Sequence record: OR880647.1
DNA length: 63,590 bases
Source of the DNA: Escherichia phage ECP2304
Reading direction: 5' to 3' (one strand)
In this document: one piece after another, positions 32,601-32,804 of the stretch
Numbering within the stretch: position 1 is the stretch's first letter
How the letters are laid out: the number at the start of each line of letters is the position of its first letter
The notes under the pieces: generated by a model
Seen by the model: only the letters and a program-made list of their open reading frames with translations
Databases searched by the model: none
What the model was told of the DNA's origin: nothing
Made by a program: the position numbers and the translations under genes

Positions 32601-32804
32601 ATGTGTGGTAATACTAACTGTTGCTGTCTAGGCAGTCCTGCAACACAAGCAGGTATACTTCAGGGGCAATTGGCTCAAGCGGCGTGTAATTGCAAAACTT
32701 TTCAACCAGTAGCGCCAACTCCTGTGTTTGTGAATGCTTTTGCACCGCCTGTTTTCAATACTTTTGGCGTATACCCATACGGTTCTTTCTTTCGTATATT
32801 CTAA
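32601..32804 (+). CDS. hypothetical small Cys-rich protein (67 aa)
   Basis: AAGGAGG RBS; MCGNTNCCCLGS...CNC motif. Confidence 0.5.
   Translation: MCGNTNCCCLGSPATQAGILQGQLAQAACNCKTFQPVAPTPVFVNAFAPPVFNTFGVYPYGSFFRIF

Follow-up and report, generated by a model that had tools for sequence, protein, structure and literature searches.

The small ORF that closes the late operon of Escherichia phage ECP2304 raises two questions: whether it is a genuine gene, and what a peptide with several cysteines at its very start may be doing in an infected cell. A sequence-only reading had described its product as Cys-rich and compatible with a metal-binding or disulfide-rich peptide. We analysed the locus within the whole deposited stretch of DNA (sequence record OR880647.1; 63,590 nucleotides), which is called the window in what follows. 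Positions 59896–63590 of the window are an exact copy of positions 1–3695 (3,695 bases, 0 mismatches), so that the genome unit is 59,895 bp and the deposited stretch wraps around. The genome is that of a Seuratvirus (Queuovirinae): a megablast search with 30400–33400 returned 62 phage records, the best matches being Seuratvirus coliphages such as CAjan, slur01, SeppeHuegi and SA126VB at approximately 95–96% identity, with Seurat itself at the same level. The coordinates of the features discussed are presented in Table 1.

Table 1. Positions, strands and basis of the features at the end of the ECP2304 late operon (numbering of the window)
Feature	Position	Strand	Basis or remarks
Remaining part of the dispensable accessory module	30625–32318	+	Gly-rich 235 aa, MazG-like 122 aa and 176 aa
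Gly-rich 235-aa protein (phrog_9288)	30625–31332	+	PHROG scan, alignment
MazG-like 122-aa protein	31404–31772	+	PHROG and Pfam scans
176-aa protein	31788–32318	+	PHROG and Pfam scans
94-aa gene (phrog_7239)	32305–32589	+	11 nt 5' of the peptide gene; PHROG match
Shine–Dalgarno sequence AAGGAGG	32588–32594	+	Overlaps the upstream TAA stop (32587–32589); 6 nt 5' of the ATG
CDS of the 67-aa small protein	32601–32804	+	phrog_25697; Seurat gp23 / CAjan gp25 family
N-terminal module, codons 1–28	32601–32684	+	Cys cluster, LGxPxTQxGxLQ, one predicted helix
C-terminal tail, codons 29–67	32685–32801	+	Fast-evolving; composition and alignments
Bidirectional intrinsic terminator hairpin, core GGGGC-AAAT-GCCCC	32807–32835	both strands	Common to the two convergent operons
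TM93, 93-aa predicted multi-pass membrane protein (phrog_15669)	32834–33115	−	Convergent

Based on the ORF listing and the sequence, the ORF starts with ATG and encodes 67 amino acids (MCGNTNCCCLGSPATQAGILQGQLAQAACNCKTFQPVAPTPVFVNAFAPPVFNTFGVYPYGSFFRIF), as the sequence-only reading had it, and the ribosome-binding site proposed there is found in front of the start codon. A purine-rich Shine–Dalgarno (SD) sequence (AAGGAGG, AAGGGGG, GGGGGGGG or TGGAGG) is present at the equivalent site in all eight homologous loci compared. The bidirectional terminator that had been suggested downstream is supported both by folding of the two strands and by annotation: the G+C-rich hairpin has folding energies of −15.4 and −14.6 kcal/mol on the two strands (z −2.8 and −2.7), each time with a U-rich tail, and in the close relative SA126VB terminators are annotated on both strands at the matching position. 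In Hafnia phage yong3, in phage 9NA and at the homologous loci L011 and L012 a hairpin lies in the same place with a different stem sequence. Each homologous locus has an SD 5–8 nt upstream, an ORF of similar length (54–69 aa) and a downstream hairpin or terminator. The placement at a strand switch is likewise exact, as the gene is the final one of the rightward late structural operon (rightward ORFs from approximately 4.4 kb to 32.8 kb) and abuts the convergent junction with the leftward replication genes, which include the DNA polymerase gene (34427–36466).

Other ways of reading the same DNA were also considered. A frameshift fusion to the upstream ORF was rejected because the peptide lies in the −1 frame, which is open only from 32574; it is also opposed by the absence of a slippery heptamer and by an arrangement that is not conserved. 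The antisense 43-aa ORF and the two overlapping ORFs on the + strand have no counterparts in yong3. A small inverted repeat, GACCT-TTAAGG-AGGTC, at 32581–32596 extends across the stop codon of the 94-aa ORF and into the SD. Translation of the peptide might be coupled through it to termination of that ORF; the repeat shows no obvious conservation in yong3 or 9NA. Nothing relevant was found in an Rfam scan of 32000–33600. A match to isrJ at 33515–33573 on the − strand falls below the gathering score (21.3 bits, the threshold being 37; E 0.41). It lies over a terminator-like hairpin (33516–33539) and is probably due to chance.

Concerning its relatives, the peptide matches phrog_25697 along its entire length (E 4.9e-47, 159.6 bits, residues 1–67 on profile positions 1–67 of 67). 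No function is assigned to this family, and approximately 30 Seuratvirus records carry the gene as a ‘hypothetical protein’, Seurat gp23 and CAjan gp25 among them. Identity to the ECP2304 copy is 95–98% in 29 Seuratvirus records and 85% in SA126VB, and both the position and the neighbours are the same. At position 7 the ECP2304 copy has Cys and the commonest cluster of the family (75 member sequences) Arg; there is otherwise no substantive difference. The feature itself is therefore already known, as an uncharacterised hypothetical protein deposited in dozens of Seuratvirus genomes and with a PHROG of its own. The gene goes unmentioned in the 9NA genome note, in the comparative genomics paper on Seuratvirus and in the E. 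coli HS phage preprint.

The conservation in relatives that the sequence-only reading had called for is present and reaches beyond the Seuratvirus genomes: the gene is found in 33 Seuratvirus records, including the BASEL phages SeppeHuegi, WildeMaa, KurtStettler and GottfriedDienst, and in 15 records of 9NA-like phages. In yong3 a weak tblastn match (46% identity, E 0.2) leads to a syntenic unannotated 67-aa ORF (MCGTSACCLGSPATQFGLLQSQIANTQARF...). Tracing the upstream 94-aa gene into other phages led to 9NA gp15 (MCCRTSCCLGIPATQFGLLQSQIAHTQAVF..., 54 aa), orthologues of which are found in 15 records of 9NA-like and Sashavirus phages, many of them unannotated. These Sashavirus and Nonanavirus orthologues and 9NA gp15 have the N-terminal motif MCCRTSCCLGIPATQFGLLQSQIAHTQA in common with the Seuratvirus peptides and likewise possess an aromatic C-terminus, an upstream homologue of the 94-aa gene, and a convergent TM93 homologue with a terminator. 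The differences are that 9NA gp15 is 42% identical and 13 residues shorter, that it has four N-terminal Cys and lacks the C29/C31 pair, and that its block sits between terL and portal, whereas that of ECP2304 follows the tail-fibre genes. We saw no record or database entry that connects the Seuratvirus family with the 9NA gp15 group.

Further diverged copies were found with a profile search (P0005–P0008), in STP-SP5 and on metagenomic contigs. Across 5.8e9 word-indexed proteins and 1.84e9 cluster representatives searched exhaustively with HMMER there are approximately seven true clusters, all on phage contigs; four hits of the latter search (P0010–P0013) are long tandem-repeat proteins with many weak stretches and were rejected as homologues. 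No relatives were found in 185,579 bacterial and archaeal genomes (one per species). The gene is thus restricted to these virulent phages and is not prophage-borne. A sizeable share of the records (e.g. Sasha, Sergei, SP069, PJ16, PDP46, yong3, Skure and PLYYY01) contain the ORF without annotation, and therefore counts of the family based on annotation are underestimates. What our analysis adds to the known feature is modest, namely a selection test, a precise motif, the link between the Seuratvirus peptides and 9NA gp15 together with the unannotated copies, and a set of natural knockouts.

Looking at the 14 distinct sequences of the family, the residues M1, C2, C8, C9, L10, G11, P13, T15, Q16, G18, L20, Q21 and A25 are invariant, and the family motif can be written as M-C-[GC]-x(2-4)-C-C-L-G-x-P-x-T-Q-x-G-x-L-Q. 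The ECP2304 peptide had been credited with seven Cys in its first 32 residues; the actual number is six, at positions 2, 7, 8, 9, 29 and 31. Its description as Cys-rich holds in part: a cluster of three or four Cys within residues 2–9 is found in all 14 homologues, but only C2, C8 and C9 never vary. Each member has three to four Cys in its first ten residues, the additional ones being at position 3 or 7. The remaining Cys of the ECP2304 copy are variable, C7 being an uncommon variant and the C29/C31 pair being restricted to the core Seuratvirus clade. The ‘CNC’ pair, which the sequence-only reading had singled out, is accordingly no hallmark of the family: yong3, 9NA, L011 and L012 lack it, and in L014 its place is taken by CNF. 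No homologue contains a CxxC, and the three invariant Cys, two of them adjacent, fit no canonical Zn or Fe-S motif.

At the phage's own Cys frequency (1.19%), the probability of at least six Cys in 67 residues is approximately 1.5e-4, and that of at least four Cys in the first nine residues approximately 2e-6. At least six Cys are also found in 6 of the 177 six-frame ORFs of 40–100 aa, which makes the total Cys count by itself weak evidence; an N-terminal Cys cluster is seen in one of the 177, the peptide ORF alone. The case against chance rests on conservation rather than on Cys counts. Compared with SA126VB, the nearest diverged relative, dN/dS is 0.165 (Nei–Gojobori; Sd 18.5, Nd 13.5). Against yong3, 9NA, L011 and L012, the first 28–29 codons show pS values of 0.7–0.94 (saturated) and pN values of 0.15–0.32, and this combination of saturated synonymous sites with low pN places the conservation at the level of the protein and not of the RNA or DNA. 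Judging by these substitution patterns, the ORF is a genuine coding gene whose N-terminal module is under purifying selection, and it is very probably translated.

The peptide gene is the last of a tight four-gene unit that begins with the genes of the MazG-like, 176-aa and 94-aa proteins; the lateral tail-fibre gene and the gene of the Gly-rich protein lie before this unit. For the 94-aa protein AlphaFold2 predicts a four-helix bundle (pLDDT 89.9). The model has no significant or informative structural match in the PDB, and bears at best a weak resemblance to all-alpha MazG-like proteins (e.g. 2p06 and 2yxh). The distribution of this gene is wide, with 161 phage records across Queuovirinae, Drexlerviridae, 9NA-like and eiAU phages. 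TM93, found in 53 records (Seuratvirus, 9NA-like phages and eiAU), is the closest match to the peptide in phyletic distribution; adjacency and physical linkage alone may explain this co-occurrence. Between Seuratvirus and 9NA the identity is 78% for the 176-aa protein, 72% for the 94-aa protein and 53% for TM93, as against 42% for the peptide, which thus diverges much faster than its neighbours. In 9NA (L008) the 176-aa, 94-aa and peptide genes and the convergent TM93 gene form a block (1949–3244) inserted between terL and portal. What is left of the Gly-rich gene there is a truncated 62-aa remnant, also within the block, which looks like a horizontally moved cassette with its own convergent terminator.

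Not all phages of these groups have kept the gene. Nonagvirus JenK1 and Hanrivervirus JakobBernoulli possess the upstream genes and lack the peptide, and in Edwardsiella phage eiAU the 94-aa gene and TM93 are 26 nt apart with no peptide gene between them. Two independent deletions have removed the accessory module (the four upstream genes) together with the conserved N-terminus of the peptide, leaving the terminator and TM93 in place: in KS_A3 (L006) approximately 2.2 kb is lost, 30568 being joined to 32734 through the 7-nt microhomology ATGCTTT, and in phiG7 (L007) approximately 1.7 kb, 30897 being joined to 32624 through ACTGTT. KS_S4 shows the same tblastn pattern as KS_A3. A frameshifted 36-aa copy (P0004) is found on a 60-kb contig. 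Since KS_A3, KS_S4 and phiG7 were recovered as plaque-forming phages, lytic growth in the laboratory does not depend on the gene, which is non-essential, and these three isolates are natural knockouts.

Concerning the anatomy of the peptide, conservation is unequally divided between its two parts, the mean pairwise identity of eight diverged representatives being 0.70 for residues 1–28 and 0.35 for the remainder. AlphaFold2, run on the family alignment, predicts a single helix at residues 13–28 and disorder elsewhere (pLDDT 52), and at this low confidence the helix is tentative. In the alignments it shows a small-xxx-small pattern (A14, G18 and G, S or A at position 22; G22 in ECP2304), and its amphipathicity is weak. 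Phe, Pro, Thr, Val and Ala are abundant in the tail, which in ECP2304 has no acidic residue and ends in Phe. Across the family the last residue is F, W, Y or L, and the residue at position −3 is usually basic (Arg).

The start of the peptide bears directly on where it would act. The MCG start is preceded by an in-frame stop at 32571–32573, with no earlier start codon and no hydrophobic h-region between them. With Cys already at residue 2 and no open frame before the start, neither a signal peptide nor a lipobox is possible, and there is no double-glycine leader. Without an export leader the product is expected in the reducing cytoplasm, which makes the disulfide-rich half of the original suggestion unlikely. 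The other half, metal binding by the N-terminal Cys cluster, is plausible and stays putative.

Comparison with known classes of small proteins gave no assignment, and Pfam, NCBIfam, PADLOC and PDB sequence searches with the peptide returned no matches. Metallothioneins resemble it in their clustered Cys, including a vicinal CC; the ECP2304 peptide differs in being mostly a Cys-free chain with no family-wide CxC or CxxC repeats. A metallothionein-like protein was rejected given a Cys content of 6 in 67 residues (9%), of which only three are invariant, ten Phe or Tyr, and the unconserved CNC pair. A zinc ribbon or zinc finger was rejected for its lack of CxxC and of database matches. The o-spanin Rz1 and the Cor and Llp lipoproteins are small and rich in proline, have a functionally important Cys close to the start of the mature chain, and are encoded in the vicinity of tail or late genes; they are dispensable in the laboratory. 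In these proteins the Cys has to be preceded by a signal peptide with a lipobox at its end. The ECP2304 peptide is like them in size, Pro-richness, N-terminal Cys, late-gene location and dispensability. Unlike them it has its Cys at residue 2 with nothing preceding it, so that lipidation by Lgt and LspA and export are not expected, and a phage or bacterial lipoprotein of this kind was rejected. A secreted disulfide-rich peptide of the class II microcin type was also rejected, as there is no leader in the sequence and no transporter in the module.

The reading that we tentatively prefer, as possible rather than probable, is a leaderless cytoplasmic accessory peptide of approximately 7 kDa, whose N-terminal module would carry thiols or a metal bridge and whose tail would be sticky. 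Conserved Cys in cytoplasmic bacterial proteins are usually metal ligands or reactive thiols. The Cys cluster, with its invariant vicinal Cys–Cys, would hold a metal ion or cluster or serve as a set of reactive thiols. Together with the helix, which has small residues on one face, it might form a small oligomer or dock onto a partner. The uncharged aromatic Phe/Pro tail would touch a hydrophobic surface, candidates being the membrane on its inner side and a groove in a host or phage protein. The outcome would be that the infected cell is modulated rather than that the virion is built. We infer the metal or thiol chemistry, the oligomerisation and the target from the conservation and composition described above. 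Against this reading, the late-operon site near the tail-fibre genes is equally compatible with a virion-associated role.

A somewhat unlikely alternative places the weight on the tail and makes the Cys cluster secondary: the tail would partition into the inner membrane on its cytoplasmic side, and there the peptide, possibly with TM93, would alter membrane function, lysis timing or superinfection exclusion as a peripheral effector at the membrane or envelope. The Wimley–White interfacial free energy of the tail lies in the lowest 0.02–2% of windows taken from the long ORFs of the phage (−6.3 kcal/mol for the last 25 residues, within the lowest 0.02%); 13 of the 14 homologues contain no Asp or Glu, and the few basic residues flank the hydrophobic stretch. 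The phyletic pattern of the peptide also fits TM93 far better than the 94-aa gene, and TM93 belongs to the block that is common to 9NA. On the other hand, no TM segment is predicted: in eight homologues the most favourable 19-residue segment has a Hessa dG of +7.0 to +11.1 kcal/mol on a simple, position-independent scale (for the first hydrophobic segment of the neighbouring TM93 it is −3.9). The tail is this far from a TM helix because of its prolines (six of the peptide's seven) and its asparagines. A small integral membrane protein (holin, antiholin or TM peptide) was rejected for the same lack of a favourable insertion segment. Furthermore, TM93 belongs to the opposite, earlier-type transcription unit and occurs without the peptide in eiAU. 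Nor would a membrane effector account for invariance lying in the polar N-terminus, with its many Cys and Gln, and not in the tail.

The place of the gene in the genome suggests something different, a minor component of the virion or of tail-fibre assembly, in which the terminal Cys clusters of the peptide and of its Gly-rich neighbour would be linked by intermolecular disulfides or share a metal site after the particles have reached the oxidising milieu outside. The gene is the last of the late structural operon, approximately 2.1 kb past the end of the lateral tail-fibre gene, and one BASEL record calls the Gly-rich neighbour a ‘putative lateral tail fiber chaperone’. This neighbour has a glycine-zipper-like N-terminus (GGDGFGGEAGAAGIGGAIGGLIGSWIGNGWGGNGGWGG), and its CCC at 155–157 and C-terminal PTPPTPPxGCC are invariant in five diverged homologues, which makes it a second protein of the module with terminal or clustered Cys. 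We regard such a role as unlikely, given that isolates without the entire module are viable, that Nonagvirus has the Gly-rich protein without the peptide, that the Gly-rich gene is reduced to its remnant in the block between terL and portal of 9NA-like phages, and that the module includes a non-structural, MazG-like enzyme.

A bolder form of the preferred reading is no more probable than a virion component. It would make the peptides an unrecognised class of leaderless phage effectors, with the Cys cluster as an anchor or oligomeriser (metal-bridged or covalently modified), a fast-evolving tail that engages a component of the host envelope, proteolysis or defence, and an arms race as the cause of the tail's diverging faster than all neighbouring genes. 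Relaxed constraint on a disordered region, and not an arms race, could also lie behind this rate.

Quite unlikely, in our view, is a young, nearly or entirely functionless ORF, born in the T-rich 3' part of the operon and tolerated because it ends at the terminator. The family is narrow and confined to phages, it has been lost repeatedly, its structure is poorly predicted, and the C-terminal half of the gene is 39% T and of low complexity, with repeats of the AP(x)PVF type. These traits are set against the purifying selection on the N-terminal 28 codons despite saturated synonymous sites, the conserved strong SD, and the retention of the gene in two otherwise unrelated phage groups whose copies of the neighbouring genes are only 53–78% identical. 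A RiPP-like precursor, in which a neighbouring protein would recognise the conserved N-terminus as leader and the variable tail would form the modified or released core, is very improbable: it would fit the layout of a conserved N-terminus before a hypervariable C-terminus and the position of the gene 11 nt after that of a small conserved protein, but the module contains no modifying enzyme, protease or transporter domain (Pfam, NCBIfam, PADLOC), the 94-aa neighbour is a predicted all-helical bundle and not a PqqD-type winged-helix recognition element and is found in more than 100 phages without the peptide, and the Cys lie in the supposed leader instead of the core, with no evident cleavage motif.

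In sum, the peptide is a small accessory ORFan of an ordinary kind whose conserved Cys cluster is unusual. For the present the finding is of little consequence, the gene having already been deposited as a hypothetical protein. If the Cys cluster binds a metal, or the tail binds a host protein, the peptide would offer a compact and easily synthesised model for small phage accessory peptides.
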